From assembly GCA_002709075.1 (NCBI GenBank), contig PAPV01000005.1, positions 89,989 to 153,988 of the forward strand: a stretch of 64,000 nt of DNA, in the 5' to 3' direction. Under the pieces are notes generated by a model. The model was not told the origin of the DNA, did no database searches, and saw nothing but the letters and a program-made list of their open reading frames with translations. Both the position numbers and the translations under genes were made by a program. Shown here piece by piece: positions 1 through 13,595 of the stretch (positions within the stretch are counted from its first letter, which is position 1; each line of letters begins with the position of its first letter). The DNA comes from Rhodospirillaceae bacterium (lineage in GTDB: Bacteria > Pseudomonadota > Alphaproteobacteria > MPNO01 > UBA2964).

Positions 1-443
1 TTTTCTTCATTTGCCTCATCAATGCACAGCATCACGTTTACAAAATTGGTGGCATAATTCTCCCAACCTGCTTGCGAGTCCTGGTGAGGTTTAAAGCCAG
101 AACCACCTGGCATTTTGAAATTGATTTTTTCTTTAAATAAATAGGCAGCTTCACCTAATAACTGTTCAACCATAATTTTCAAAACATTGGTTAAAGTTGC
201 AAACCCGTTGTGGAAAGGAGAAATATATTCTATACGGTTTATAAGTTTTTTATTATCGATTTGGCCGCTCTCATGAAAAACCCAATGTTTTCCCGCCTCT
301 TCGGGTAGTTCTTCAACCTCCATTGCCCATTTATCAATTATCTCAATGTCAGATGAAGAAAAAGCATTATACAATGCACAACATCCGTTAGCATTAAATT
401 CACTAATATGTTGGTGTGTGAGAATAGGTGTGACAATCATCAT
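1..443 (-). CDS. PhyH-family Fe(II)/2-oxoglutarate dioxygenase. The 5' end (ATG at 443-441) is present; the 3' end is cut by the window edge
   Basis: Hand translation of the minus strand gives MMIVTPILTHQHISEFNANGCCALYNAF...FKMPGGSGFKPHQDSQAGWENY. The K-x-PGG...HQD block with the H-x-D iron ligands is the PhyH/phytanoyl-CoA dioxygenase signature. The ORF track does not list it because it runs off the edge. Confidence 0.6.
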   Translation of the reverse strand, partial: MMIVTPILTHQHISEFNANGCCALYNAFSSSDIEIIDKWAMEVEELPEEAGKHWVFHESGQIDNKKLINRIEYISPFHNGFATLTNVLKIMVEQLLGEAAYLFKEKINFKMPGGSGFKPHQDSQAGWENYATNFVNVMLCIDEANEE

Positions 444-535
444 AAATCAAGTTTATCGTTCTAAGTATAATCATTCAACGCTGGGAAAATTGACACATCA
501 ATAAATGTAATCGCTAAACTGTGAGAAAGCTACCT

Positions 536-1675
536 ATGATTGACGCAGATGATTTTTTGAACCCAGCGCTTCAGGCTGGTTTTAATTTTTACACTGGTGT
601 TCCTTGTTCATTTCTAACACCAATAATTAATAGGGTTATCTGCTCTGAAACTACGGAGTATATTGCTGCGGCAAGTGAAGGGGAAGCTGTAGGGATAGCT
701 GCGGGTGCTTGGTTGGCAGGGAAACTCCCTGTTATAATGTGTCAGAACTCCGGCCTCGGGAATGCTGTTAATCCTCTTACCTCTCTTAATTATCCTTTTA
801 AAATACCAGCACTTTTGATTGTTACGTGGCGGGGGGCGGTGGGTTTAGATGATGAACCGCAACATCAGCTTATGGGACAGATCACTAAGGATATATTAAA
901 TATTATGCGTGTTCCGTATGGTATGTTCCCCAATAACAAAGCCTCAATTAACCCTGCAATTGAGAAGGCTATTAGTGAAATTTCTAAAAATAACCTTCCT
1001 TATGCCATGTTGATGAAAAAAGGTTCAATTCAAAACGAGGAAATACAGCCATTAAAATCCGATAATTTTATTTCAGGTGAACTTTATGATTGGACAACTT
1101 CAAAAATTTTTCCTAGCAGGGTTTCGGCAATTAAAAATGCACTTGAAATTCTACCTTCAGATGTAGGAATTATTTCTACCACTGGATATACAGGACGAGA
1201 GCTTTATGAAGTGGCTGATCGAGAACAACACCTATATCAAGTCGGATCAATGGGATGCGCTGCTGGAATGGGGTTTGGAATTGCAATTAATTCAGAGAAA
1301 AATATTTGCGTTTTTGATGGAGACGGAGCAGCTTTAATGAAGCTTGGTACCATGGCTACAGTTGGCGCTTACAAACCTAAAAATTTCATCCACATATTAT
1401 TTGATAATGGGACTTATCAGTCTACCGGCGGACAGCCTACAGTTTCATCAAGTATCAATTTTGCTAAAATTGCAATTGCTTGTGGTTATCGGTTAGCTTT
1501 TTCTTGCAATGATTTAACCCATTTTAATGAAGCGTTAAACAAAAGTAAAATTGATGGTGGCCCCACACTGATTCATATGCGGGTAAGAAAAAAATCTTTA
1601 GTTGTCCCAGGGAGGCCTAAGATCGGTCCAGCAGAAGTTGCTGCACGTTTCAGAGATTTTTTAGCGCAAGAATAA
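536..1675 (+). CDS. ppd: Phosphonopyruvate decarboxylase (ThDP-dependent). Track ORF starts at GTG 521; ATG 536 (MIDADDF...) preferred
   Basis: ThDP-binding motif GDGAALMKLGTMATVGAYKPKNFIHILFDNGTYQ (GDG...NN). Overall length and N-terminus are typical of Ppd/AepY and sulfopyruvate decarboxylase relatives. The context with a PhnW-like transaminase favours Ppd. A GAGAAAG RBS-like element sits 6 nt upstream of ATG 536. Confidence 0.7.
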   Translation: MIDADDFLNPALQAGFNFYTGVPCSFLTPIINRVICSETTEYIAAASEGEAVGIAAGAWLAGKLPVIMCQNSGLGNAVNPLTSLNYPFKIPALLIVTWRGAVGLDDEPQHQLMGQITKDILNIMRVPYGMFPNNKASINPAIEKAISEISKNNLPYAMLMKKGSIQNEEIQPLKSDNFISGELYDWTTSKIFPSRVSAIKNALEILPSDVGIISTTGYTGRELYEVADREQHLYQVGSMGCAAGMGFGIAINSEKNICVFDGDGAALMKLGTMATVGAYKPKNFIHILFDNGTYQSTGGQPTVSSSINFAKIAIACGYRLAFSCNDLTHFNEALNKSKIDGGPTLIHMRVRKKSLVVPGRPKIGPAEVAARFRDFLAQE

Positions 1676-1680
1676 TTTTT

Positions 1681-2823
1681 TTATTTACGATTCAAGTTTT
1701 TCGAATTTAAACCAATTGATGCCAAATAAATAGATATTTCTGAGAGTGCGCGGTCAATATCTGTTTTGTTAATATCGCCAATGCAACCAATTCTGAATGT
1801 TTTTTCCTGTGTGACTGCGCCAGGATAAAGTATTACTCCTTTTTTACGCAACGCCTCGTACATCATTTCAAAATCAAAATTTGGATTTTTTGGAAATCGG
1901 ACAGTTACAATTATTGGTGACTGTTGCATTTTAGATAAGAACAAATTAAAGCCTAATAAGCGTAATCCATCCACAAGCTGGTTACAATTAGCTTGATAAC
2001 GTGTTTCCCTTGCCGAAACACCGCCCTCGTTCTCCAGTTCTACAAGGGCTTGATCGAGTGCGGCTAAGACATGTGTGGGAGGTGTAAACCGCCACTGACC
2101 AGTTTTATCTAAATATTTGGCTTGATCATGCAAATCAAGGCAAAGCGAGTTAGCATTTCCGGCAGTAGTATTTAGGATGTTTGTCTTAATTATTGCATAA
2201 GCAATCCCAGGAACACTTTGCAGACATTTGTTTGACGAAGATATCAGCGCGGTTGCAGGTATTTTCTTGAGATTTATTTTTAAAGCACCAAAACTACTCA
2301 TTGCATCAATGATCATTTCACGTTTAGCATTTCTAACGATTGATGCTATATTCTCTATTGGGTTTAGAATGCCAGATGTGGTTTCACAATGGACTACGGC
2401 GACGTGGGTAATATCTGTGTTGGTTTCAAGTCGGGAGGCAATTTCGCAGGGGTCGGGCTGAATGTCTTCAGGTGTTTTGTACACTTCATATGCTCTGCCG
2501 AGATAATCACAGATTTTAGCCATGCGTTCCCCGTAAACGCCATTAATCAGAATTAAACATTTTCCCATTCTACGTGGCAGCAATGTGCCGAGTGTAGCTT
2601 CAACAGCAAAAGTTCCACTGCCTTGGATTGGAATGCAGTTATAGCCTTCTTCTGCCCCTGCAAGTTTACAAAGTTTCGATCGGACTCTAGCGGTCATCTC
2701 TATGAACGTTTTGTCTCTCGATCCTATATCGCGATTTAATGCCTTCCTAACTGTGACTGACGTTGTCAATGGACCCGGTGTGAGGAGAATTTCTCCACGT
2801 TTTCTCTCTTCGTTAGTTTGCAT
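1681..2823 (-). CDS. phnW: 2-aminoethylphosphonate:pyruvate aminotransferase (class V, PhnW-like AEP transaminase)
   Basis: Strong PhnW-type blocks: LLTPGPLTTS near the N-terminus, IDAMSSFG, SSSNKCLQSVPG (PLP lysine region), WRFTPPTH and IYPGAVTQEKTFRIGCIG. Convergent with ppd, with only 5 bp between the stop codons. Confidence 0.8.
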   Translation of the reverse strand: MQTNEERKRGEILLTPGPLTTSVTVRKALNRDIGSRDKTFIEMTARVRSKLCKLAGAEEGYNCIPIQGSGTFAVEATLGTLLPRRMGKCLILINGVYGERMAKICDYLGRAYEVYKTPEDIQPDPCEIASRLETNTDITHVAVVHCETTSGILNPIENIASIVRNAKREMIIDAMSSFGALKINLKKIPATALISSSNKCLQSVPGIAYAIIKTNILNTTAGNANSLCLDLHDQAKYLDKTGQWRFTPPTHVLAALDQALVELENEGGVSARETRYQANCNQLVDGLRLLGFNLFLSKMQQSPIIVTVRFPKNPNFDFEMMYEALRKKGVILYPGAVTQEKTFRIGCIGDINKTDIDRALSEISIYLASIGLNSKNLNRK

Positions 2824-2993
2824 TCTTCCTTGCCTAACTCGTTCCTATCATGCATGAATTTCTAGTATGCACATGTTGACAACTTTATGCCAAGCATACT
2901 TGTCTTTTGAAAACATGGGAGGAACCAATAAGCCATAATACTTGGATACACCGAATTGTACGGAAGGGGGTAAGACCACTTTTAAAGACATCG

Positions 2994-3539
2994 ATGCATC
3001 CCAATTTTCTTACAACACTTAGATTTCTTACCGGAATGTTTTCCGCTTTCCTATTCTCAATCGACAATTTCTATTGGAGATGGGAAGCAATTTTGATACT
3101 TACAATTTCTTTGTTACTAGATCGTGCAGATGGAGAATTTGCCCGTCAAACCGGCCGCACAAGTAAATTTGGTCATAAATATGACTTGGTTGCTGATGGG
3201 GTTTCTAACGCGGCTTTGTTCGCCGGTATAGGGTACGGAATGCCCTCAAACTCTTTAGGCGGTTATGCGATGGAGGTCGGTATGGCTGCTGGAATTGCAA
3301 TTCTAGGCACAGAATTTCTGGTAATGCGAGCACATGATACTGGAATAAAAAATACTAAGGATATTGGAAATTTTTATGGTTTTGATCCTGATGATGGAAT
3401 GTTTCTCGTCCCTGTGGTGCTTGCATTTCATTGGGAAAATGCATTACTCATAATTACGGTAATCGGAGCTATAATTTCATTGCTAGTTACATTAGTTATG
3501 GTTGTTCGTGGATCCAAAAATTCTGCAGGAAAACTGTGA
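2994..3539 (+). CDS. CDP-alcohol phosphotransferase-family membrane protein (small, ~181 aa; ORF extends to a TTG at 2907)
   Basis: Family motif D-G-x2-A-R-x8-G-x3-D-x3-D is present as DRADGEFARQTGRTSKFGHKYDLVADG. The N-terminal PNFLTTLRF matches the usual TM1 entry of this family. Multiple TM helices. No SD seen for either start, so the start is uncertain. Confidence 0.7.
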   Translation: MHPNFLTTLRFLTGMFSAFLFSIDNFYWRWEAILILTISLLLDRADGEFARQTGRTSKFGHKYDLVADGVSNAALFAGIGYGMPSNSLGGYAMEVGMAAGIAILGTEFLVMRAHDTGIKNTKDIGNFYGFDPDDGMFLVPVVLAFHWENALLIITVIGAIISLLVTLVMVVRGSKNSAGKL

Positions 3540-6155
3540 ATGTGGGAATGTTACTTAGGTAGACTTGCCAATAAGGTTGTGCATCTTTCGGTAAAACATC
3601 ACATAATAATTATTACCTCATATGTTTTGATTGCCGGATACTTATTTTGGTACGGTGCGGTAAACCTAGCAATCAATACAGACAATGCTGATCTTTTGTC
3701 TAGAGATCTTCCTTTCCGCACTCACCACATTGAAATAAAGGAGTCATTTCCACAGCTTTCTAACAATATTATTGTGGTCGTAGATGCGTTGACAACTGAG
3801 CAGGCGGATTATGCAGCTCTAAAACTTTTTAACGCTATTAAAGCAAAAAAAAAGTTATTCCCTGCTGTATTTTATCCTGCAGGAGAGAGATATTTTACTA
3901 AAAATAGCCTTTTATTTCTTGATAAGGTTCAACTCAGACATTTAATGGAACACCTAATAGACCATCAGTTTTTTATTGGTCGATTGGCTGCTGACCCGAG
4001 CCTTCGTGGATTATTCAATATTTTAACTCTTGCCCTTAATCAGGTGAAAAATAGTTTTGAAAAAAATGAATTAATTAGGTTCATGGATATGCTAACCAGA
4101 TCCCTCCAATCAGGACTCGAAAGACCGAAGGCAAGTTTTTCTTGGCAAAATTTTATAGGTCAAGATGCAGTTCAAGATCCAAAAAATCGCAGATTTATTA
4201 TCCTTAAACCAAATCTTGATTATGGTTCCTTACAACCTGCACAAAACTCAATGTCAGAAATCCGGAGGCTAGCCTCAAGTTTGAAACTTACCCCTGCTTT
4301 CGGTATTCGAGTGCGGCTCACTGGGACCGTTCCAATGGAACAAGAGGAGTTAGCCAGTGTGGTTGAAGGCATGGGTGTAGCCGGAGTGACATCATTTGTT
4401 TTGGTGTTAACACTTTTATTTGTGGCGATGCGATCATTTAAAATGGTTATTTCGGCTATATTAACATTAATTGCGGCCCTTGGCTGTACCGTCGGATTTG
4501 CGGCATGGGCTGTAGGCAGTCTGAATTTAATATCCGTTGCATTTATAGTTCTTTTCATAGGGCTGAGCGTAGATTTTGCCATTCATTTTTGTTTGCGAAT
4601 TCGGGAAGAAATAATTGATGGGAAAAGAATGTCAGGTTCGGCACCTAGAGCGGCTAGAAAGATAGCAGGCGCGCTCTGTTTGTGCACCGCTACTGCAATG
4701 ATAGCTTTCTTCAGTTTTTGGCCAACAAATTATGTAGGTCTGGCAGAACTTGGGATTATCTCAGGTGCAGGCATGCTTATTGCTCTAATAGTTAATCTAA
4801 CTTTTTTTCCTGCGCTTCTCAAAATGCTTGGGTTTTTTAATAGGTCAACTTCAATATGCAAAAAACCCATTGTTATAAATGAGGCCTGGCAAGTGAGGCA
4901 CTCCTTCAAGATTTTGATATTTGCTTCAGGCCTAACGATTGGGGCATCACTTCTCGTGGTGGATGTTCGTTTTGATTTTGATCCATTAAATCTAAAAGAT
5001 CCAGAAACTCAGTCGGTTTCAACCATGTTGGATTTAATGAATAAATCTGATTTATCGCTTTACTCTGCGGACATTTTAACCAAAGGGCCAACCGAAGCGA
5101 TAAAATTAACTCAAGAACTGAAAAATTTACCCACCGTCGGTAAAGTAGTAAATGCATTTAGCTTCATTCCTGTAGAGCAATCAGAGAAGCTATCTATAAT
5201 TTCTGAGGCTAAACTTCTTATTTTACCAGCGCTGTATTTGCCGAAGATACCCAAACCGAGTGAAATAGAAACTCGTAAGTCAATTGCTCAATTTCTTGAT
5301 TCGGCTACAAAAATGGATCATCAAAAACAACCCAAAATTGCATTTGCAGCTAAAAGTCTGATTAAAAGCATGCAACATTACAACCTAGAAAATCTGAAGG
5401 AATATAAACAACTAGAAGAAAATTTATTGGGTAATTTACCGAACTCAATAGAAAAACTAAAGGAGATGCTTTCCGCCTCCAGCGTTGTATTTGATGACGT
5501 GCCAATTAGTATCCGTCAACGTTTTGTTGATAAAGATAATCGCTGGCGGGTGGAGGTACATGCGGCAAAAAAAACAAGAGATCCAGATAATTTAATAACA
5601 TTCGTAGATGAACTGAAATCAGTGGCGCCGACGGTAACTGGGTCGCCTGTAATTATAGTTGAAGCAAGTCGCGTCGTTGTTCAGGCATTTTTGGTGGCGG
5701 CTGTCATATCCATCGGGGCAATTTCAATCTTGTTGCTCATACTGTTGAGAAGAATTGACGATGTGCTTTTGACATTTGTTCCTTTGGTATTGGCTACTTT
5801 ATTGACTGGCGCAGCAAGCGTTTTGCTTGATATGCCATTCAATTTTGCTAACATAATCGTATTGCCACTAATATTTGGTTTAGGGGTTTCCAGTATGGTG
5901 CACTTGATCATGCGGTCTGATGATTTTAGCATTCCAACCGCAATTTTTTTAACTTCAACCCCACGAGCAGTAAAATTTAGCGCTCTTACTACAATCGGAT
6001 CCTTCTCCACTATCGCACTCTCGAGTCATCCAGGAACCTCTAGCATGGGGGTGCTACTTGCCGTTTCCATCGGCTTCACTTTGGCTTCTTCTTTGATTTT
6101 GCTTCCGGCACTACTAGTATTGAGAAAGAACTTCATAATTAGTCGTGAAAATTAA
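3540..6155 (+). CDS. MMPL/RND-superfamily lipid exporter (HpnN-like, 871 aa)
   Basis: The architecture is TM1, a large periplasmic domain, a 5-TM bundle (GVAGVTSFVLVLTLLFVAMRSFKM...LSVDFAIHF, SSD-like), a second periplasmic domain and a second TM bundle. Size and layout match MMPL and HpnN-type transporters. Confidence 0.75.
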   Translation: MWECYLGRLANKVVHLSVKHHIIIITSYVLIAGYLFWYGAVNLAINTDNADLLSRDLPFRTHHIEIKESFPQLSNNIIVVVDALTTEQADYAALKLFNAIKAKKKLFPAVFYPAGERYFTKNSLLFLDKVQLRHLMEHLIDHQFFIGRLAADPSLRGLFNILTLALNQVKNSFEKNELIRFMDMLTRSLQSGLERPKASFSWQNFIGQDAVQDPKNRRFIILKPNLDYGSLQPAQNSMSEIRRLASSLKLTPAFGIRVRLTGTVPMEQEELASVVEGMGVAGVTSFVLVLTLLFVAMRSFKMVISAILTLIAALGCTVGFAAWAVGSLNLISVAFIVLFIGLSVDFAIHFCLRIREEIIDGKRMSGSAPRAARKIAGALCLCTATAMIAFFSFWPTNYVGLAELGIISGAGMLIALIVNLTFFPALLKMLGFFNRSTSICKKPIVINEAWQVRHSFKILIFASGLTIGASLLVVDVRFDFDPLNLKDPETQSVSTMLDLMNKSDLSLYSADILTKGPTEAIKLTQELKNLPTVGKVVNAFSFIPVEQSEKLSIISEAKLLILPALYLPKIPKPSEIETRKSIAQFLDSATKMDHQKQPKIAFAAKSLIKSMQHYNLENLKEYKQLEENLLGNLPNSIEKLKEMLSASSVVFDDVPISIRQRFVDKDNRWRVEVHAAKKTRDPDNLITFVDELKSVAPTVTGSPVIIVEASRVVVQAFLVAAVISIGAISILLLILLRRIDDVLLTFVPLVLATLLTGAASVLLDMPFNFANIIVLPLIFGLGVSSMVHLIMRSDDFSIPTAIFLTSTPRAVKFSALTTIGSFSTIALSSHPGTSSMGVLLAVSIGFTLASSLILLPALLVLRKNFIISREN

Positions 6156-7144
6156 TGTTTGCGATACGTGTTTTATGTTTGCTGATTGGAGTCGTCCTCT
6201 TAGCCATCATAATTGTTTCAACTGATATATATGCAGCCATAAAATTGATCCAGGGAATGGGATGGGGAATTTTGTTGGTAACGGTAGCTTATAGCGTAAT
6301 CTCATTTGGTGATACGCTATCTTTTCACGTGTTAACCCATAAGATACCCATGACCATAAGAAATTTTTACGAGCTGTGGAAAATAAGGTTAGTCGGTGAG
6401 GCCTATAATCAAGTATTGCCTCTCGGGGGTCTGGGAGGTGAGCCAATAAAAGCGGTTCTCTTAAAGCAGTCAACGGAAATGGATTTGGAAGAAATCACAG
6501 CCTCACTTTTCGCTGCAAAAACGGTAAACATCGTAACCCTAATTATCTTTTTGGCAGTTGGATTTCTTCTGATGGGTTGGGAAAAGAGAATTTCTCCAGA
6601 ATTTTTTCGGGCAGCTGGATTAGGATTAGCGGTTTTGAGTCTGGGTATACTGGGTTTCTTTCTTATTCAACGAATGGGTTTGTTGTCCGTTCTTTTCAGT
6701 AGACTGTTACATCGACTGAAAGGACGCTTTTTAAATGTAATTGCAATAATTTCAAACATTGAACACCGATTATACGAATGTTACCGCTATCGAAAATATC
6801 GTTTCCTAGCTTCGCTTTTTGTCGCTCTTATTGTTTGGGTTGTAAGCATAGTTGAAGTGTATTTAGTACTTTATTTTTTAGGGTATCCAATTAGTTGGAC
6901 AGAGGCATGGATTATAGAATCCGGAGCTCAATTAGTGAAAGCAGGCACCTTTTTTATTCCAGGAAGTATAGGAGCCTTTGATGGAGCATTTTTATTGCTG
7001 TGTGGAATGATTACTGGTTCGCCGGTGGTGGGTGCAGCCGTTGCGGTTGTAAGGAGGCTTCGCGAAATTTCATGGACTGCCTTTGGATTTGCTATCGGGA
7101 TATTCAGGCTGAAAAAATATGAACAAGGAAAGAAAAAATATTAA
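6155..7144 (+). CDS. Flippase-like / UPF0104 (LPG_synthase_TM) integral membrane protein, HpnL-like
   Basis: About eight predicted TM helices, 329 aa, with a conserved RLVGEAYNQVLPLGGLGGEP segment typical of the flippase-like domain. Its ATG overlaps the stop of the MMPL gene (TAATG), which suggests translational coupling. Confidence 0.6.
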   Translation: MFAIRVLCLLIGVVLLAIIIVSTDIYAAIKLIQGMGWGILLVTVAYSVISFGDTLSFHVLTHKIPMTIRNFYELWKIRLVGEAYNQVLPLGGLGGEPIKAVLLKQSTEMDLEEITASLFAAKTVNIVTLIIFLAVGFLLMGWEKRISPEFFRAAGLGLAVLSLGILGFFLIQRMGLLSVLFSRLLHRLKGRFLNVIAIISNIEHRLYECYRYRKYRFLASLFVALIVWVVSIVEVYLVLYFLGYPISWTEAWIIESGAQLVKAGTFFIPGSIGAFDGAFLLLCGMITGSPVVGAAVAVVRRLREISWTAFGFAIGIFRLKKYEQGKKKY

Positions 7145-7146
7145 AG

Positions 7147-7770
7147 TTAATTGGCAGCAAGAAGCCGTCTAGTTTTGGAATTTAAAACGATGGTTAATGC
7201 TTTTGTCCCCCCGGTTGTTAGAATTTTTCTGTATTCAGACCGTCTAGTTGCTAGCTCACTAATGCCACCCGCTAAAATTATATCTATCACACGCCAGACA
7301 CCATTGGTCTCTAGAAGAACGTATGCAATTTGAATTGGCTTGCTGCGTTTGTTGACTATTTGAGTGGTTATAACACGCGATCCACTCGGTCCAAGAGTGT
7401 TAGATAAAGTAATAAATTTTTGACCAGAAAAACTATTAAAACGCAACGCGTAGTTGGCAGCACTATAATTACGAAAAGCCTCAACTAGGTTCTTTTGTTC
7501 AATTAACTTTGCTTTACGCCAATGGTTACCACTAATAAGTTTAACCATCCCCTTTAAGTCAAAAACTTCTTGAACTAGCTCTCTTAGATTTTTATAGCGT
7601 CCTTGCAGCCCCAGATTATTTGCTGTCTTCATTGTATGCAATAAGTTCAAGTGAAATTTTTTTATTTGTAATACGGGTCTGTTCTCGGCGCGTGCGCCCG
7701 CAGACAATACGACCAAAATTATTAATAAAAATTGGAACAAACGTTTTTGTTTTCTATAAATTTGCTTCAT
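7147..7770 (-). CDS. MlaC/Ttg2D-family periplasmic phospholipid-binding protein (HpnM-like). The track ORF extends to 7818
   Basis: Signal peptide (FQFLLIILVVLSAGARA) followed by a ~190-aa soluble domain with the Ttg2D/MlaC pattern (NLRELVQEVFDLKGMVKLISGNHW...). The start at MKQIYRK is preferred over the upstream MFYKL. Confidence 0.6.
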   Translation of the reverse strand: MKQIYRKQKRLFQFLLIILVVLSAGARAENRPVLQIKKFHLNLLHTMKTANNLGLQGRYKNLRELVQEVFDLKGMVKLISGNHWRKAKLIEQKNLVEAFRNYSAANYALRFNSFSGQKFITLSNTLGPSGSRVITTQIVNKRSKPIQIAYVLLETNGVWRVIDIILAGGISELATRRSEYRKILTTGGTKALTIVLNSKTRRLLAAN

Positions 7771-8007
7771 GGTTAATTTGAGTGGCCCTTTGTTGTAATA
7801 TGTTAACTTGTAAAACATTTTTTACCTTATAAACGCAACCTGTAGAAAACTTAATGACAGATGGTGAATCTACTCTATTATCCTAAGGGAATAAGTGATT
7901 TAATCGGTAACGGATGAAACAGTTAGATATTTGTATTTGAGTGCCAGGTTTATTGATGATGATTCTAAATGAATAGTTATACTAAAAAAGTGAGTTAATT
8001 CTTTCAG

Positions 8008-8844
8008 ATGTTGAGTATGGATTTTATTCTAAGAGCCTTCATTCGATCGTGGAAATTGGTAGCAGTATCTATATTCTGTTTGTCAGTTTCCACATCATTT
8101 GCAACAGCATCGAAAATTTACACCACAACAGAGGTTGTTGCTCCCTATAAAATTGACTCTATAGATACAAATGACCCACTTGAGAGTGTAAATAGGGTAG
8201 TTTTTCATTTTAATGATATTATCTACTCATTTGTATTACGCCCTTTAAGTAAGGTTTACGACAAAATACTACCTGACTTTGTTCAGGCAGGCGTCCATAA
8301 CGCTCTGAACAATTTGAATTCACCAGTAATTTTAGCGAACGATCTATTACAAGGTGAATTTGGACGAGCTAAGATCACAATACAACGTGCCGTTATAAAC
8401 ACAACGGTGGGCGTAGGCGGTTTGTATGATGCAGCTTCTAAAATTTGGAAAATACCCATGCACAAAGAAGATTTTGGGCAAACATTCGCAGTTTGGGGTG
8501 TTCAAGAAGGTTTTTATTTAGTGTTACCAATCTTTGGTGCTTCAAATCCGCGTGACGCAACGGGACTAATTGTCAACATGTATGCAGATCCATTTTCTCA
8601 CTATCTAAGAAACATTGGCGAAAATGATGCTGCCATTGCGCGCACCGCGGTTGCAGGTTTAGACAAATTTTCTGAGGTAACGGATGATTTGGAAAAATTA
8701 AAGAAAACTTCGGTTGACTATTATGCAGCAGTTCGCAGTATTTACAGACAAAAGCGCGCGGTTGAAATAAAAAACAGGTCGCACAGAAAAGGCGTATCTA
8801 TTCCAGATTTACATTATGACTTAAATGCTGAGTTACTAAATTGA
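8008..8844 (+). CDS. mlaA: MlaA/VacJ-family outer-membrane lipoprotein
   Basis: Signal sequence, then the characteristic NDPLESVNRVVFHFND...DKILPDFVQ...NLNSPVILANDLLQG blocks of VacJ/MlaA. Confidence 0.8.
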   Translation: MLSMDFILRAFIRSWKLVAVSIFCLSVSTSFATASKIYTTTEVVAPYKIDSIDTNDPLESVNRVVFHFNDIIYSFVLRPLSKVYDKILPDFVQAGVHNALNNLNSPVILANDLLQGEFGRAKITIQRAVINTTVGVGGLYDAASKIWKIPMHKEDFGQTFAVWGVQEGFYLVLPIFGASNPRDATGLIVNMYADPFSHYLRNIGENDAAIARTAVAGLDKFSEVTDDLEKLKKTSVDYYAAVRSIYRQKRAVEIKNRSHRKGVSIPDLHYDLNAELLN

Positions 8845-8946
8845 AAGTACAGACTCAACTGATATTATCGGATAGCAACTTGAATTCTATTGCTGAATAA
8901 CAAAATAATAAATAATAAATAATCTGGCCACATTGATAGGATTAAA

Positions 8947-9798
8947 ATGTTCATACAAACCGAAGGTTTATCGCTGGAAAACCAACTAAGATTTGACCCC
9001 GGTAGGGAAGTACTGCCTGGAAAACCAATAAAACTGGAAAATCCATCAGAGGCTAAAAAGTATCCGTTAGCTGAAAGGCTGCTTCTTTTATCTCATGTAC
9101 GAGCCGTTACTTTGGAAAACAGATCGTTGGTTGTGGAGAGGTCTGATGAAATAGAATGGGTTCAGCTAAAGCCAGCAATTCTCGGTGCTATTATGGACCA
9201 TTTTGTAGCCGGACTACCTGTTTATCATGATGAGGAGCTAAGTACTGATCATGAGCTTGGCGAAGATGACCAGGTGTTTTTGTTGGATCAAAGTGACCCT
9301 ATAGTTGGCGAGCTAACTGAATTAATTGCGACGCGGGTTAAACCAGCTGCTACGCAGAGTGGTGGTGATGTTATTCTTATGGGCTACAGTGACGGAGTTG
9401 TTTATCTCAAATTTGAGGGTCAAAGTTTTCAGCTAGCTAGCGGAATAGAAAATATGTTGCGACACTATATTCCGGAGGTTAAAAATGTAGCCGATTACCG
9501 TGATGCTTTTCCGAAGCCTGGGTTGGATACCCCGGAAGCGCGAGCTATAAAGAGCGTGCTCGAAACACGTATTAACCCCGCGGTCTCAGGCCACGGTGGT
9601 CACATCAGTTTGATAGATGTGGATGGAAATAGTGCCTACATTCGGATGGAGGGCGGTTGTCAAGGTTGCGGCATGGCTAATGCTACTCTCAAAGAAGGTG
9701 TCGAGGTGGAAATTAAAAAAGCTGTTCCTACAATTGAGAGAGTTTTGGACGTCACTGAACATGCAGACGGCACAAATCCTTATTACCAGCAAGGGTAA
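8947..9798 (+). CDS. NifU/Nfu-type iron-sulfur cluster scaffold protein (Nfu_N plus NifU C-terminal domain with CxxC)
   Basis: The C-terminal domain has the GGCQGCGMA motif and the VDGNSAYIRMEGGC pattern. The N-terminal Nfu-like domain has the LKFEGQ motif. Confidence 0.7.
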   Translation: MFIQTEGLSLENQLRFDPGREVLPGKPIKLENPSEAKKYPLAERLLLLSHVRAVTLENRSLVVERSDEIEWVQLKPAILGAIMDHFVAGLPVYHDEELSTDHELGEDDQVFLLDQSDPIVGELTELIATRVKPAATQSGGDVILMGYSDGVVYLKFEGQSFQLASGIENMLRHYIPEVKNVADYRDAFPKPGLDTPEARAIKSVLETRINPAVSGHGGHISLIDVDGNSAYIRMEGGCQGCGMANATLKEGVEVEIKKAVPTIERVLDVTEHADGTNPYYQQG

Positions 9799-9846
9799 TT
9801 TGCTGATTAAAAGTGCATTATCAGACAAAAAAGGGCTGTTTAAAAA

Positions 9847-11097
9847 TCAGGCAGCAGTATTTTCTTTTTGCTCCGATAGAATCCGTGAAACAGGTTTATC
9901 GTCGATTGGTAAATGCAGTAACGATGCCACTATCCCGGCACTGATAATCAACCACCAGGCATAGTCATAAGATCCAGTATGATATTTTATTATACCACCC
10001 AACCATACTGATGTGAAGCTTCCAACCTGATGGCTGAGAAATACTAATCCGTAAAGAGTTGCAAGATAGCGCGGTCCAAATACTTCTGCCACGATACCTG
10101 AGGTTAAAGGTACCGTTGCCAACCATAAAATACCAACCGAACAGGCGAATAAAATAACACTTAATTCAGTTTTTGGGAGAATAAAGAATACAAGAAAAAC
10201 TGTTGATCGAGCCGAATAAATAAATGCAAGCAAATACTTCTTTCTTAAAAATCCGCCAAGAAACCCGGAAGCTTGAGTACCAAGCATGTTAAAAAATCCT
10301 ATGAAGGCAATAGCGGTTGCTGCCATAGCGCCACCAACGGCTGTGGCATTTAAATAATTTTCTAAGTGGTTATTTATGAATTGAACTTGAAATCCACAAA
10401 CAAAGAAAGCGACAGTCAACAACCAAAAGCCACGATGACCTGCCGCTTCTTTTATAGCATCTCCGAGACTTTGACTGTCCTTTTTGGATAAAATGCCTTT
10501 GGCAGCACTTGCCATAGTCAGTGCAAATGGAACGACCAGTAAAGCCATAGTGCCAAGAACAATGGTTGCGTATACCCAACCTTTATAAGAAATTAGATAA
10601 TGTGTTAGGGGAACTATTAGCATCTGGCCTGCTGTACCTCCCGAAACAACAATACCAAGCCAAAAAGTCCGCCATTTTTCCGGAGCGACGCGGCCAACAA
10701 TTGATAATAACATTGGAAGTGCAATACCGGCTGACCCAAGTCCGATGAAGATTCCGACATTAAGCACCAATCCGAATTCAGATGTCGATTGTGACATCAT
10801 GAACAACCCAAAAGAGTAAAGCAAGCCGGATAGAATTAAAACACGAATTGGGCCCCAACGATCGGCGGCCGCACCCAGAAAGGGCGCGGCACAGCCATAA
10901 ATTAATAACTGGAGGCCGGTTGCGAAAGACATCACTCTTACATCGGTCCCCCAACCAAGGGCTTCGGAGACTGGGCGTAAAAACATTCCCATGCTTTGTC
11001 GACCACCATAGGCAAATAGAATGATACTTATCGCGCAAATCAACACGATGAATGGGTTATGCCAAATCGTTGACTTAATTATTTCTGCCCTCCACAC
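9847..11097 (-). CDS. MFS transporter (paralog 1 of 3 in tandem)
   Basis: Twelve predicted TM segments. The N-terminal block YGGRQSMGMFLRPVSEALGW and the LPMLLSIVGRVAPEKWR motif are shared with the next gene. Confidence 0.75.
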   Translation of the reverse strand: MWRAEIIKSTIWHNPFIVLICAISIILFAYGGRQSMGMFLRPVSEALGWGTDVRVMSFATGLQLLIYGCAAPFLGAAADRWGPIRVLILSGLLYSFGLFMMSQSTSEFGLVLNVGIFIGLGSAGIALPMLLSIVGRVAPEKWRTFWLGIVVSGGTAGQMLIVPLTHYLISYKGWVYATIVLGTMALLVVPFALTMASAAKGILSKKDSQSLGDAIKEAAGHRGFWLLTVAFFVCGFQVQFINNHLENYLNATAVGGAMAATAIAFIGFFNMLGTQASGFLGGFLRKKYLLAFIYSARSTVFLVFFILPKTELSVILFACSVGILWLATVPLTSGIVAEVFGPRYLATLYGLVFLSHQVGSFTSVWLGGIIKYHTGSYDYAWWLIISAGIVASLLHLPIDDKPVSRILSEQKENTAA

Positions 11098-11116
11098 ATT
11101 CTCACAAAATCAACAA

Positions 11117-12340
11117 TCACGCTGTTTGCGCAAGTCTTTCCACTGGAGTTTCCTTAATAGGCAGGTGAAAAAGGGCAGCAAGTGCGCCTCCCAGTATGAT
11201 AACCCACCACCAGATTTCATAGGAGCCAGTTGAGTCACGAACTACACCACCCATCCAAGTACTAAATGCTCCACCAATTTGATGACTAAGGAAAGCTATT
11301 GCGTATAGCGTTGCCATATAACGCGGTCCAAAAAGAGTGGATATGATACCTGCTGTGAGAGGGACTGTAGCTAGCCATAATACACCTATACATGAAGCAA
11401 AAATGTACACTGAAGTTTGGCTAATAGGCGCTAGAAAAAACGCAAGCATTACCAGTGAACGACCTACGTAGAGAAATACAAGAAGATTTTTTTTTCGAAA
11501 ATGTCCGCCCAGTTTACCCGCGAGCGCTGTACCAATCATGTTCGAAAATCCAATTAATGCTATGGCATGTGCGCCTATTGTTACACCGGTTCCTGTATCT
11601 TCAAGAAATTTGGGAAGGTGGGTAACAATAAATTGCACTTGGAAACCACAAGTAAAAAATCCTAGGCAGAGATACCAATAACTACGCGCTTCCCTTGCCT
11701 CTGAGAGGGCTTGCCCCAAAGTTTGCGTGTCTTTTTTTTGATCCAGGGCGTTTCCACTGGCTTTTCCAACAATTATTGCCATGGGAACAATTGCAAAAAT
11801 AAATGACGCTAAAATAATAACGGCATCAGTCCAGTCCATTCGTGTTAGTAAAAATCCATTAAGTGGAACAAGAAACATTTGTCCGCCTGTTCCGCCGGCG
11901 GATACAATCCCAAGCCATAGACTGCGTTTTTTTTCTGGTGCAACTCTTCCAACCACTGATAGAAGCATTGGTAGCCCGCAACCTGATGCTGCTAGTCCGC
12001 TAAGAACACCAATGCTAAGAGCGAGATGTAGTTCAGATACGGCATTGCTTAATTGGTACATCCCAAATGCATAGAGTGCACCCCCAATAATAAGCATCTT
12101 GATCGGCCCAAGCCATTTATCTGCAATCATGGAAACAAAGGGAACACTTATTCCGATAATCAGGGTTTGAAGACTGACGGCAAAAGAAAATGGTTCAACT
12201 CTTCCACCGCTGATAGAATCACTTATTGGAACGAGAAAAATGCCAAAACTTTGACGGGTCCCGTATGAAATTAATATGATAAGTGTGCATAGTAAAAGCA
12301 CAATGTATGGACTCTTCCACAAGGTGTTTGTTTCTGACAT
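11117..12340 (-). CDS. MFS transporter (paralog 2 of 3)
   Basis: Closely similar to paralog 1 (LPMLLSVVGRVAPEKKRSLWLGIV, HLPI...P tail). Confidence 0.75.
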   Translation of the reverse strand: MSETNTLWKSPYIVLLLCTLIILISYGTRQSFGIFLVPISDSISGGRVEPFSFAVSLQTLIIGISVPFVSMIADKWLGPIKMLIIGGALYAFGMYQLSNAVSELHLALSIGVLSGLAASGCGLPMLLSVVGRVAPEKKRSLWLGIVSAGGTGGQMFLVPLNGFLLTRMDWTDAVIILASFIFAIVPMAIIVGKASGNALDQKKDTQTLGQALSEAREARSYWYLCLGFFTCGFQVQFIVTHLPKFLEDTGTGVTIGAHAIALIGFSNMIGTALAGKLGGHFRKKNLLVFLYVGRSLVMLAFFLAPISQTSVYIFASCIGVLWLATVPLTAGIISTLFGPRYMATLYAIAFLSHQIGGAFSTWMGGVVRDSTGSYEIWWWVIILGGALAALFHLPIKETPVERLAQTA

Positions 12341-12359
12341 ATTTACTAGTTTCAGTTAA

Positions 12360-13595
12360 TCAACCAATCTTAGTTTGAAGCATCACTTTCCGAGTAACAG
12401 GCTTTTCATCAATTGGCCAGTGAATAAAAACTGCAACAAAACCCAGTCCAACCGCTGTCCACCAAACCGGATCGTAGGATCCTCCCCACCCACGTACAAT
12501 ACCACCAAAAGTGATGCCCACAAAACTTCCTAATTGATGGCTTAAGAATACAAATCCGTAAAGGGTTGCTAAATATTGTGTCCCGAAAATTTGAGCTACA
12601 AGCCCACTCGTTAGGGGAATTGTCCCAAGCCAGGTCAAACCCATCAAAGCAGAAAATATGATTGTGCTAACATCGGTTATAGGCATTAGCACATATACAA
12701 CGATACATAAGGACCTCATCATATACAATCCTGCAAGTAAGTATTTTTTACTATATCTGCCCCCTAAAGCACCCCAAACAAAGCTTCCTAGAATGTTAAA
12801 GAGACCAATTAAGGCAAGTGACCAAGCCGCTATCTCCGCAGATATACCAATATCCTTAAGATACAGAGGTAAGTGACTGGCAATAAAAAGTGTTTGGAAA
12901 CCACATACGAAGAAACCCAGAACTAGTAACAAATACCCACGATGATGAAGGGATTCAAAAATTGCTTCGGTCACACTTTGTCGTCGATCGAATTGGTCAT
13001 TTGAAATTATTGGCTTTCCCGCAATGGGTATTATGAGAGGTATTATAATCAGCATTATACACGATAATATTATCAGTGAACTAGCATATCCACTATCGAT
13101 CATAAAATAATGGGCAAATGGTACTACAATTACCTGCCCGCTAGAGCCACCAGCGCTGGCAATTCCCAAAAACAGACTGCGGCGCTTGAGGTGAATGCTG
13201 CGTCCAATTACTGATAGTATAATCGGGAACCCAGTAGCACTCATGGCAAGGCCAGTGAGAACACCCGTACTAACGTGTATTTCAATCTCAGTTGTTGAGG
13301 TGGCCATTAGGTATAGACCAAGAGCATATAACGCTGCACCAGCACTAATTACTCTGCCAGCACCGTATCTGTCTGCTACCACGCCCCATAGTGGTTGTGA
13401 TAGGCCCCAAACAAGAACCTGTAATCCCATTGAGAATGAAAACACAGAAATATTCCAACCATTCGATTCAGAAATTGGGCCTAAAAAAAGACCATATGTT
13501 TGGCGAATTCCAAAAGAGCTTAATAATATTAATGTGCCACAGATGAGAATTAGAGAGGGTGTTTTCCAACCAATTTTCTGTTCCCCAAAATCCAT
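12360..13595 (-). CDS. MFS transporter (paralog 3 of 3, more diverged)
   Basis: Same topology and conserved blocks (FGIRQTYGLFLGPISE, ILSVIGR...KRRSLFLGIASAGG) as paralogs 1 and 2. Confidence 0.75.
   Translation of the reverse strand: MDFGEQKIGWKTPSLILICGTLILLSSFGIRQTYGLFLGPISESNGWNISVFSFSMGLQVLVWGLSQPLWGVVADRYGAGRVISAGAALYALGLYLMATSTTEIEIHVSTGVLTGLAMSATGFPIILSVIGRSIHLKRRSLFLGIASAGGSSGQVIVVPFAHYFMIDSGYASSLIILSCIMLIIIPLIIPIAGKPIISNDQFDRRQSVTEAIFESLHHRGYLLLVLGFFVCGFQTLFIASHLPLYLKDIGISAEIAAWSLALIGLFNILGSFVWGALGGRYSKKYLLAGLYMMRSLCIVVYVLMPITDVSTIIFSALMGLTWLGTIPLTSGLVAQIFGTQYLATLYGFVFLSHQLGSFVGITFGGIVRGWGGSYDPVWWTAVGLGFVAVFIHWPIDEKPVTRKVMLQTKIG

Follow-up and report, generated by a model that had tools for sequence, protein, structure and literature searches.

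The first 8,844 nucleotides of the window (the whole 64,000-nucleotide stretch of Rhodospirillaceae DNA analysed here) raise the question of why genes for 2-aminoethylphosphonate (AEP) chemistry lie next to genes for the transport of hopanoids, the sterol-like lipids of bacteria. A sequence-only reading had called eight genes in this region, and HMM searches upheld all of these calls and their coordinates. It had also stated that hopanoid enzymes are absent, and proposed that an HpnLMN-like module had been split from hopanoids and adapted to a phosphonolipid. The absence holds inside the 64-kb window only: hpnD, shc, hpnG, hpnH and hpnA, together with an NTP_transf_3 cytidylyltransferase gene, lie directly left of base 1 on the same contig, and these hopanoid genes were seen there in three independent assemblies. 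Their products score clearly as shc (764 bits, cutoff 431), hpnH (549 bits, cutoff 225), hpnA (471 bits, cutoff 368) and hpnD (305 bits, cutoff 279). Neither hpnC nor hpnE is present next to hpnD at this locus; in the loci of relatives, IspH, HpnE and a polyprenyl synthase are recurring neighbours. The apparent lack of hopanoid enzymes is a window-edge artefact, and the idea of a repurposed module fails because hopanoid genes directly flank the locus.

The order along the contig is hpnD-shc-hpnG-hpnH-hpnA-[PntC-like cytidylyltransferase]-[PhnY*-like dioxygenase]-ppd-phnW-[CDP-alcohol phosphotransferase]-hpnN-[hpnL-like]-hpnM-[mlaA-like/hpnS]. Positions 1-8844 are best explained as the right-hand half of a cluster of hopanoid genes in which phosphonate head-group genes are nested; the explanation as a whole, including a lipid made on a hopanoid acceptor, is given a probability of about 40%. 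The hopanoid-cluster context and the ordinary role of HpnN, HpnM and the MlaA-like protein can be taken with high confidence, and the functional coupling of an AEP-type lipid head-group module to HpnN and HpnL is probable. That the lipid acceptor is a hopanoid, and not diacylglycerol, is a tentative assignment.

HpnN, HpnM and the MlaA-like protein make up the set commonly proposed for hopanoid export. HpnN, a hopanoid transporter of the RND/MMPL type in the inner membrane (3540..6155, plus strand), scores 871 bits with TIGR03480 (cutoff 752) and aligns over its full length with the crystallised HpnN (433 bits to PDB 6wu0, 425 bits to 5khn), but stays under the stricter equivalog NF052374 (693 bits, cutoff 1100). 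The start of the next gene overlaps the hpnN stop (TAATG). It encodes a flippase-like membrane protein of the LPG_synthase_TM type (6155..7144, plus strand; PF03706, 96 bits) with about 7-8 hydrophobic segments, which passes the TIGR00374 flippase-like domain (54 bits, cutoff 43) and reaches 159 bits with TIGR03476, under the cutoff of 195.65; it is a member of a sister subfamily to canonical HpnL. HpnM (7147..7818, minus strand), an MlaC/Ttg2D-like periplasmic lipid-binding protein with one N-terminal hydrophobic signal segment (residues 27-45), matches TIGR03481 at 167.6 bits (cutoff 160.1) and PF05494 at 112 bits. The MlaA/VacJ-family protein (8008..8844, plus strand; PF04333, 223 bits) differs from canonical MlaA (NF011672, 96 bits, cutoff 375); it corresponds to "HpnS", proposed as the outer-membrane end of hopanoid transport (PMC12324291), and forms the right boundary of the cluster. 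Beyond it lie an NfuA-like gene (8947-9798) and three OFA-type MFS transporters.

The two AEP-pathway enzymes recognised from the sequence were borne out, both scoring above their TIGRFAM cutoffs. The phosphonopyruvate decarboxylase Ppd (521..1675, plus strand) reaches 424 bits with TIGR03297 (cutoff 312.5) and has the ThDP motif GDG...N at residue 267; translation probably begins at the ATG at 536, for a protein of 379 aa, as in the database gene call. Sulfopyruvate decarboxylase models give 136 and 108 bits, under their cutoffs. The 2-aminoethylphosphonate:pyruvate transaminase PhnW/AEPT (1681..2823, minus strand) scores 486 bits with NF010006 (cutoff 296), 462 bits with TIGR02326 (cutoff 401) and 458 bits with TIGR03301 (cutoff 361), and carries the SxNK motif with the PLP lysine at residues 196-199. 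Most relatives have a fusion of PEP mutase and PntC with the dioxygenase on one side and Ppd on the other. Here, no PEP mutase gene (pepM) was found in this conserved position, nor elsewhere in the sequence that runs from 17 kb left of the window to its right end (-17 kb to +64 kb), which leaves AEP synthesis putative and unproven for this genome.

The left edge cuts a PhyH-family Fe(II)/2OG dioxygenase gene (1..443, minus strand; PF05721, E 1.7e-7), of which the window holds the 5' part, the N-terminal 147 of 251 residues, with the HxD of the facial triad at residue 120. Among the NCBIfam models it matches NF052437 best, a methylphosphonate hydroxylase of the PhnY* type, with 71 bits for the fragment and 142 bits for the full protein (L001), below the equivalog cutoff of 500. 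Its family similarity suggests that it is probably a phosphonate alpha-hydroxylase, converting AEP to 1-hydroxy-AEP. The PntC-like cytidylyltransferase that had been expected just past the left edge was found there (NTP_transf_3; positions 5949-6674 of L001). This stand-alone protein shares ~23% identity with the PntC domain that relatives carry in their PepM fusions, and does not significantly match any solved PntC; like the dioxygenase, it scores far under every equivalog cutoff.

The gene just before hpnN encodes a small CDP-alcohol phosphotransferase (CDPOH1; 2907..3539, plus strand; about 210 aa; PF01066, 57.6 bits), the candidate head-group transferase. It has an intact D-x2-DG-x2-AR-x8-G-x3-D-x3-D motif (DRADGEFARQTGRTSKFGHKYDLVAD, at residue 72), and the solved proteins most closely related to it are AF2299, PIP synthase and IPCT/DIPPS. 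The start given in the database is preceded by a conserved N-terminal stretch, SHNTWIHRIVR, and the deposited calls of 181 aa and 167 aa are therefore truncated. In a neighbour-joining tree, the window transferase groups with the copies of Pandoraea and Skermanella. Its TGA stop directly abuts the hpnN ATG, an arrangement of translational coupling. In one MAG (L042), a single 1104-aa ORF carries the PF01066 and MMPL domains, which is a phosphotransferase fused to HpnN; L014 has a third CDPOH paralog, which overlaps the stop of hpnN, and Pandoraea has a fusion of the CDP-OH transferase with a 2OG oxygenase. Because the transferase is coupled and once even fused to hpnN, the proposed link between head-group chemistry and the HpnN/HpnL/HpnM/MlaA-like proteins is real; what did not survive is the adaptation of the module away from hopanoids.

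This arrangement recurs among GTDB species representatives in the order hpnH-hpnA-NTP3-PhyH-[PepM/PntC-Ppd-PhnW]-CDPOH1-(CDPOH2)-hpnN-hpnL-hpnM-mlaA, and dozens of species genomes have the phosphonolipid core nested in this way, with hpnA on one side and hpnN on the other. The interleaved order is kept across Rhodospirillales, one Hyphomicrobiales MAG, gammaproteobacterial MAGs and Burkholderiales. Neighbouring genes were counted in the 37 loci that have 8 kb or more of flanking sequence on either side. AEP genes occur in 17 of these; hpnN lies within 10 kb in 14/17 and hopanoid biosynthesis genes are present in 10/17, while three (L034, L049, L078) were scored as having neither hopanoid genes nor hpnN within 10 kb. 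L078 does have an hpnN fragment at its contig end. The Group 1 core of Pandoraea ends PhnW-dxs-hpnN, where hpnN scores 626 bits to the crystallised HpnN (PDB 6wu0), and the membrane protein of the Pandoraea and Skermanella cores is a bona fide TIGR03476 HpnL (356 and 303 bits, respectively). Among 54 alphaproteobacteria analysed elsewhere, hpnL is absent where hpnH is lacking (PMC12583986). Against our reading, to our knowledge no phosphorus-containing bacteriohopanepolyol has been reported; the same work profiled by UHPLC-HRMS the hopanoids of Skermanella aerolata 5416T-32, which has a complete core (L023).

The product of the locus is likely an envelope lipid headed by (1-hydroxy-)2-aminoethylphosphonate. 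With support at the family level, phosphonopyruvate supplied by a PEP mutase encoded elsewhere (none was found) would be decarboxylated by Ppd, and its product transaminated to 2-AEP by PhnW. The dioxygenase, given its likeness to PhnY*, may add a C1 hydroxyl to yield 1-hydroxy-AEP, and by analogy with PntC the cytidylyltransferase would make the CMP-phosphonate. The CDP-alcohol phosphotransferase is then predicted to act at the inner membrane, on its cytoplasmic side, where a lipid alcohol would receive the phosphonyl group. Homology with MprF-type flippases suggests that the HpnL-like protein flips the product, which HpnN, HpnM and the MlaA-like protein might carry to the outer membrane with ordinary hopanoids, by the route that the literature proposes for the latter. 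As acceptor we prefer an extended hopanoid (bacteriohopanetetrol, via HpnH/HpnG), whose C33-C35 end resembles glycerol; transfer to this end would give a phosphono-hopanoid.

CDP-alcohol phosphotransferases that use diacylglycerol (DAG) are established in eukaryotes and Treponema, and we know of none with a triterpenoid acceptor. It is possible, at less than even odds, that CMP-(1-hydroxy-)AEP goes to DAG, that the HpnL-type protein flips this phosphono-glycerolipid, and that the hopanoid genes lie alongside; their co-location would then reflect co-regulated outer-membrane remodelling or a shared HpnN-HpnM-MlaA-like route, with no covalent hopanoid conjugate. Published work predicts such a lipid for the Group 1 core, whose Nostoc/Burkholderia pathway is drawn with DAG and HAEP (PMC5987646 Fig. 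7, after Yu 2013) and which is named a phosphonolipid cluster in PMC8942020. In three loci (L027, L033, L034) the core is a self-contained block with no hopanoid genes within 10 kb. Furthermore, a DAG-1-hydroxy-AEP lipid has the elemental formula of phosphatidylethanolamine and could therefore escape routine lipidomics. However, such a lipid was never isolated from any carrier (PMC8942020), and a glycerolipid product does not account for the many species in which the module lies among hopanoid genes, for a transferase fused or translationally coupled to hpnN, or for the reported restriction of hpnL to genomes with hpnH (PMC12583986).

Other accounts question the phosphonate itself or its tie to hopanoids. 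With pepM lost, and Ppd and PhnW being lost or in another role, the cytidylyltransferase/dioxygenase/CDPOH block might draw on seawater for salvaged AEP, or use a phospho-alcohol that is not a phosphonate. The window genome and three of its relatives (L004, L010, L021) indeed lack both the PepM-PntC fusion and the second CDPOH paralog, the fusion being present in 29 other relatives; one clade member (L062) has also lost Ppd and PhnW and kept the remainder, and 7 full-flank hopanoid loci keep NTP3-PhyH-CDPOH1 without a nearby AEP gene, which means that a phosphonate is not necessarily the donor in every case. Yet we find the absence of a de novo branch here unlikely: both Ppd and PhnW are intact and retain their catalytic motifs, and against the L004 orthologs (pN 0.24, pS 0.88 and pN 0.235, pS 0.85, respectively) they are constrained as strongly as hpnA and CDPOH (pN about 0.24, pS about 0.87) over a saturated synonymous divergence. 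Ppd is kept alone in L020, L031 and L073, which makes sense only if the missing steps are encoded elsewhere, and the adjacent MFS transporters, of the oxalate/formate-monocarboxylate type, have no match to a known AEP importer family. Chance neighbourhood of unrelated systems, the phosphonate decorating for instance a glycan, would agree with the view that most bacterial AEP decorates glycans as well as lipids (PMC6697681); it is very improbable given the interleaved order kept from Rhodospirillales to Burkholderiales, a block devoid of any glycosyltransferase or LicD-type gene, and the CDPOH-HpnN fusion. The least credible account is the phosphonolipid exporter that has lost its hopanoid link, which draws on a window devoid of hopanoid enzymes and on the sub-cutoff HpnL-like protein, and which faces the five hopanoid genes adjoining base 1, HpnN and HpnM above their cutoffs, and the same layout with hopanoid genes in many species.

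Several known systems resemble parts of the hopanoid cluster with nested head-group genes that we favour. PntC makes CMP-AEP (PMC6697681), and Pnt/Lic-type activation with a CDP-alcohol phosphotransferase as the next step, which eukaryotes use for CMP-AEP:diacylglycerol transfer, has the same logic of a nucleotidyltransferase and then a transferase acting on an alcohol nucleophile; our cytidylyltransferase, of low identity to the relatives' PntC domain, is a putative counterpart. The HpnL-like protein shares the flippase-like domain fold of MprF-type and GlcN-PG flippases (PF03706, TIGR00374, NF053789), but lacks a synthase domain and scores weakly to named flippases. MlaC- and MlaA-fold proteins are also found in the Mla system (MlaA, MlaC, MlaFEDB), whereas here they are far under the canonical equivalogs (36.5 bits versus 195 for HpnM; 96 versus 375 for the MlaA-like protein) and pair with an RND transporter instead of MlaFEDB.

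The closest likeness on the hopanoid side is the hpn cluster with a proposed HpnN-HpnM-HpnS(MlaA-like) route (PMC12324291 / bioRxiv 10.1101/2025.07.29.667474), which has shc, hpnD, hpnG, hpnH, hpnA, hpnN, hpnM and an MlaA-like gene in one block; this preprint reports the HpnM/HpnS pairing for Rhodospirillales. The locus differs by the cytidylyltransferase, PhnY*-like dioxygenase, Ppd, PhnW and CDP-alcohol phosphotransferase inserted between hpnA and hpnN, of which the searchable hopanoid literature makes no mention. The claim that nothing of the kind had been described in alphaproteobacteria was nevertheless too strong. A linkage of shc and pepM was noted in Roseomonas, an alphaproteobacterium (PMC8776678), and "phosphonate-terpene" hybrid clusters were flagged in Nitrosococcus (PMC7285500; GCF 731 in PMC8942020). 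These likewise link squalene/hopene genes physically to AEP genes, with a speculated phosphonoterpene product, but are one-line antiSMASH or neighbourhood remarks from which the transferase, HpnL, HpnN and the chemistry are absent; the hopanoid-phosphonate linkage was noted before only as antiSMASH-style speculation. The AEP/CDP-OH/hpnL core was also already known as the "Group 1 phosphonolipid" cluster (PMC8942020, PMC5987646), or "Burkholderiales_CDP-OH", a seven-gene core (Yu et al. 2013 as described in PMC8942020) known from Burkholderiales, with clusters in Nostoc and Burkholderia (PMC5987646). Our locus shares with it Ppd, the AEP transaminase, the 2OG oxygenase, a stand-alone PntC-like nucleotidyltransferase, the CDP-alcohol phosphotransferase and an HpnL-type protein, and its phosphonate genes, cytidylyltransferase, phosphotransferase and HpnL-type protein are a Group 1 phosphonolipid head-group module nested within a hopanoid cluster. 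In contrast with the described core, the defining Ppm-PntC fusion is missing from the cluster, the HpnL-type gene belongs to the sister subfamily and is placed after hpnN, and the module is interleaved with hopanoid genes.

The eight consecutive genes of window 1-8844 are those assigned by the sequence-only reading, and HMM searches upheld each identity. The first is a fragment of a PhyH-family 2OG dioxygenase (1-443, minus strand), whose sole relative in NCBIfam is the PhnY*-type phosphonate hydroxylase. It is followed by a phosphonopyruvate decarboxylase (Ppd, 521-1675; TIGR03297, 424 bits for a cutoff of 312.5) and by a 2-aminoethylphosphonate (AEP) transaminase (PhnW, 1681-2823) that is above the cutoff of three equivalog models. 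Both calls thus exceed equivalog cutoffs, and the sulfopyruvate decarboxylase models score under their own on Ppd. Then come a small CDP-alcohol phosphotransferase (2907-3539; PF01066, 57.6 bits, with a complete signature motif), HpnN (3540-6155), an HpnL-like protein of the LPG_synthase_TM family (6155-7144; PF03706), HpnM (7147-7818; 167.6 bits for a cutoff of 160.1), and an MlaA-family protein (8008-8844). HpnN reaches 871 bits with TIGR03480 (cutoff 752) and matches PDB 6wu0 and 5khn over its full length, although it scores under the stricter NF052374 equivalog cutoff. The catalytic motifs of the dioxygenase (HxD), Ppd (GDG...N), and PhnW (SxNK) are whole. GenBank labels both the transferase and HpnN of this uncultured marine Rhodospirillaceae MAG as 'hypothetical protein' (MBB42853.1 and MBB42854.1).

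The cluster ends on the right at 8844. Beyond it lie an NfuA-like gene (8947-9798) and, on the minus strand, a tandem of three MFS transporter paralogs, all of the oxalate/formate-monocarboxylate type (9847-13595). The NfuA-like gene and at least one such MFS gene are kept beside the cluster in the clade of the window genome (L004, L005, L010, L021, and L062), and we found no link between these genes and the cluster. We considered the three transporters as AEP importers and rejected the idea, given their type and the lack of a match to a known AEP importer family. Scans for sigma-70 promoters and terminators gave chance-level results (28 sites for 26.9 expected from shuffles, and 10 for 8.9, respectively).

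The part of the sequence-only reading that did not survive concerns hopanoids. It had proposed an HpnLMN-like module repurposed for phosphonolipid export in the absence of hopanoid genes, which is wrong. In independent assemblies of the same species (loci L001 and L084), the contig to the left of window base 1 carries, in order, hpnD, shc, hpnG, hpnH, hpnA, a cytidylyltransferase, and the rest of the dioxygenase. The squalene-hopene cyclase gene shc (L001 1030-2982, ca. 4 kb left of base 1) scores 764 bits with TIGR01507 (cutoff 431), hpnH 549 bits with TIGR03470 (cutoff 225), and hpnD and hpnA 305 and 471 bits with their NCBIfam models (cutoffs 279 and 368). For hpnG, the model is the top match of the gene, at 164 bits, which is below the cutoff of 187. 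The cytidylyltransferase, a 241-aa protein of the NTP_transf_3 family (PF12804), lies between hpnA and the dioxygenase. Flanking hopanoid genes were named beforehand in that reading as what would make genes 5 to 7 an ordinary HpnLMN set, and they are what we found. What the locus contains is a known phosphonate-lipid module of unsolved chemistry, in a version that lacks pepM and is placed within a normal hopanoid cluster, and the gene content identifies the marine MAG as a predicted hopanoid producer with this variant in its hopanoid cluster.

The genes hpnC and hpnE are missing from this cluster, and relatives carry hpnE beside shc. In the next 10 kb leftward past hpnD, we found genes for hydantoinase, AMP-ligase, and ADH only. 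A stretch of 1.24 kb that separates the hydantoinase gene from hpnD (L084 8758-10000, ca. 8.2-7.0 kb left of base 1) lacks any ORF of at least 110 aa, and tblastn found no remnant of hpnC, hpnE, or other cluster genes in it. Rfam gave no match in this gap nor in window 1-10000.

To place the locus among its homologs, we built an alignment of 42 transferase homologs, retrieved with it 80 loci from species-representative genomes of GTDB, and labelled their ORFs by BLASTP against the 14 cluster proteins. A recurrent order emerges: hpnG, hpnH, sometimes ispH, hpnA, the PntC-like cytidylyltransferase, the dioxygenase, a bracket of AEP genes (PepM/PntC fusion, Ppd, PhnW), and the transferase. To the right of the latter come sometimes a second, antisense transferase paralog, hpnN, sometimes a third paralog, an hpnL-like gene, one or two hpnM, and an mlaA-like gene. 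Other neighbours in relatives encode IspH, HpnE, and a polyprenyl synthase. Of the 37 loci whose flanks reach at least 8 kb in both directions, 17 have AEP genes, accompanied by hpnN in 14 of them and by hopanoid biosynthesis genes in 10. Another 7 of the 37 combine hopanoid genes, hpnN, cytidylyltransferase, dioxygenase, and transferase with no AEP gene, and in 12 a more distant family member stands in an unrelated context. In Pandoraea (locus L078) the core ends with PhnW, dxs, and hpnN, the latter being the ortholog of the crystallised HpnN (626 bits). The phosphonate core is therefore linked to hpnN in both Alpha- and Betaproteobacteria, and a gammaproteobacterial MAG (L057) shows this link too. 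Many relatives (L008, L020, L026, L031, L039, L048, L054, L072, L073, and L076) have two hpnM paralogs in tandem and as many as three paralogs of the CDP-alcohol phosphotransferase, and the window genome has one of each.

The AEP slot itself is a mosaic among species, holding PepM, Ppd, and PhnW; PepM and Ppd; Ppd alone; Ppd and PhnW; or none of them. For a lone Ppd to make sense, the missing steps must be encoded elsewhere. Genes of the amidohydrolase family occur in this variable slot in two members of the window's clade, L062 (7075-8628, minus strand), where Ppd and PhnW are missing, and L021 (7706-8704, plus strand). A Pfam check and tblastn revealed a PEP mutase-PntC fusion of 545-590 aa between the dioxygenase and Ppd in 29 relatives. 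It is not present in the window genome and its closest relatives (L004, L010, and L021), where the two genes are ca. 90 bp apart with no remnant. We searched the window and all loci by tblastn with four PepM-PntC fusions, and the six frames of the window with a regular expression for the PepM motif. Neither a mutase nor a remnant of one turned up in the clade of the window genome. No pepM was found in the window, L001, or L084, i.e. in ca. 81 kb of contig including 17 kb left of the window, so that two of the three enzymes of the PepM-Ppd-AEPT pathway were found in this stretch. When compared with L004, Ppd and PhnW show pN of 0.24 and pS of 0.85-0.88, the same as hpnA and the transferase, with the caveat that synonymous sites are saturated at the distance of L004 and L010, the genomes used for these calculations. 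Both genes have thus been held under constraint, from which we conclude that another part of the genome probably encodes pepM. The four assemblies of the same species differ by 7-9 SNPs per 20.9 kb, too few to test selection.

The transferase of the window, a small polytopic membrane protein, groups with the copies of Pandoraea and Skermanella. Its signature, D-x2-DG-x2-AR-x8-G-x3-D-x3-D at residue 72, is invariant in the 42 aligned homologs. The family also has an invariant acidic motif, GFDPDDG, near its C-terminal third (residues ca. 158-164 of the window protein), a candidate binding site for a metal or for the head-group amine. The deposited models of the transferase (181 aa and 167 aa) begin too late (window 2907-2993): the segment SHNTWIHRIVR, kept in the 42 homologs, lies upstream of the deposited starts and is included only when translation begins at the TTG at 2907 or near it.

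Several arrangements couple this transferase to HpnN. In the window, the ATG of hpnN directly follows the stop codon of the transferase, and the ATG of the hpnL-like gene overlaps the stop of hpnN. L014 and similar loci have an overlap between the hpnN stop and a third transferase paralog. In an alphaproteobacterial MAG (L042 9887-13198), the transferase (residues 38-174) and a full HpnN (232-1091) form a single ORF of 1104 aa with both Pfam domains, which could be a true fusion or a frameshift or assembly error of the MAG. An apparent fusion of HpnN with the third transferase paralog in L025 was traced to overlapping frames in crude ORF calls, and the L042 case stands alone. In Pandoraea cepalis (L078 9689-11368), a stop-to-stop ORF of 560 aa joins a transferase domain to a HalD/2OG-Fe(II) oxygenase domain, tying hydroxylation to the transfer step. 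The transferase, HpnN, and sometimes the HpnL-like protein occur as a trio in L002 (8961-15359), L052, L061, and L064, where the surrounding 10 kb hold neither AEP nor hopanoid biosynthesis genes; in L002, the neighbours of the trio are a GHMP kinase and a polysaccharide deacetylase. Such loci hint at the trio as the basic unit, combined with a variable head-group donor.

The HpnL-like protein of the window, at 159.4 bits with TIGR03476 for a cutoff of 195.65 that it does not reach, is matched by relatives in the same position at 137-165 bits, whereas the membrane proteins of the Pandoraea and Skermanella (L023) cores are bona fide HpnL at 356 and 303 bits. The window protein therefore belongs to a sister subfamily and is not HpnL sensu stricto. 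A recent preprint (2025-26, PMC12324291) independently proposed that, in Rhodospirillales among other groups, hopanoids reach the outer membrane via HpnN, HpnM, and the MlaA-like HpnS.

These genes suggest a pathway. Family-level evidence supports the conversion of phosphonopyruvate to phosphonoacetaldehyde by Ppd and of the latter to AEP by PhnW. The PhnY*-like dioxygenase may then yield 1-hydroxy-AEP, the NTP_transf_3 protein may form a CMP-conjugate, by analogy to PntC (PMC6697681), and the CDP-alcohol phosphotransferase would place its head group onto a lipid alcohol. The MprF-type flippase-like domain of the HpnL-like protein suggests that it flips the product. Family assignments make HpnN a hopanoid-type RND transporter, HpnM a periplasmic MlaC-fold protein, and the last gene product an MlaA-fold protein.

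As the lipid acceptor, we favour an extended hopanoid polyol, with a probability of about 0.4, because the module is nested in a hopanoid cluster, because the transferase shows coupling to HpnN and, in one case, fusion with it, and because genomes without hpnH are reported to be devoid of hpnL (PMC12583986). Bacteriohopanetetrol also ends in a glycerol-like triol, which in our view points the same way. Against this stands Skermanella aerolata 5416T-32 (L023), the one cultured strain in the locus set with a complete core, whose hopanoids were profiled by UHPLC-HRMS with no phosphorus-containing species reported (PMC12583986). The same study detected intact BHPs yet no Rohmer degradation products in this strain, and cyclitol-ether-type BHPs without detectable hpnIJK, both left unexplained by its authors. 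Diacylglycerol, the acceptor we rank second in probability, is backed by enzymological precedent and is the one predicted in print for the Group 1 core. By calculation, its 1-hydroxy-AEP lipid would be isomeric with phosphatidylethanolamine, which could explain why it went unnoticed.

Under the hopanoid-acceptor reading, we tentatively propose that the cluster makes an unreported lipid, a bacteriohopanepolyol with an AEP or 1-hydroxy-AEP head (calculated [M+H]+ of 654.486 and 670.481, respectively), flipped by HpnL and its sister subfamily. If true, the transferase would be the first CDP-alcohol phosphotransferase with a triterpenoid acceptor, hpnL, without an assigned function since 1998, would gain one, and a product would be identified for the most abundant class of ppm neighbourhoods in RefSeq. 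The phosphonate and hopanoid literatures each cover parts of one gene block, without connection between them. The former describes the uncharacterised Group 1 core as that most abundant class (36% of ppm neighbourhoods), and its product has been isolated from no carrier (PMC8942020). The Nostoc paper (PMC5987646) labelled the seventh gene 'hpnL' and drew a pathway from AEP to 1-hydroxy-AEP, a CMP-conjugate, and a diacylglycerol lipid. A linkage of shc and pepM was noted in Roseomonas (PMC8776678) and Nitrosococcus (PMC7285500, PMC8942020), as one-line 'phosphonate-terpene' speculation only. The hopanoid literature lists hpnL, hpnA, hpnM, and the MlaA-like gene as "function unknown" or "proposed transport". 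In our locus and its relatives, the core lies within hopanoid clusters and has canonical HpnL among its members, and the head-group transferase is coupled to HpnN, with one fusion. The role of HpnL and the identity of the Group 1 phosphonate thus become a single question. The broader pattern, membership of HpnL in the phosphonate core and coupling of transferase and HpnN, is worth testing; for this marine MAG, the practical message is more modest.

Compared with known systems, the export genes differ from Mla: the MlaA-like protein scores 96 bits for a cutoff of 375, the MlaC model gives 36.5 bits on HpnM for a cutoff of 195, and the canonical MlaFEDB genes were not found in the window block. 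The gene set matches the seven-gene 'Burkholderiales_CDP-OH' or Group 1 phosphonolipid core, composed of a Ppm-PntC fusion, Ppd, AEPT, a 2OG oxygenase, a stand-alone PntC-like transferase, a CDP-alcohol phosphotransferase, and one more membrane protein (PMC8942020). The window-type cluster differs from it by its lack of the PEP mutase, usually fused to PntC, and shares with it a block with Ppd, AEPT, PF05721, PF12804, PF01066, and PF03706.
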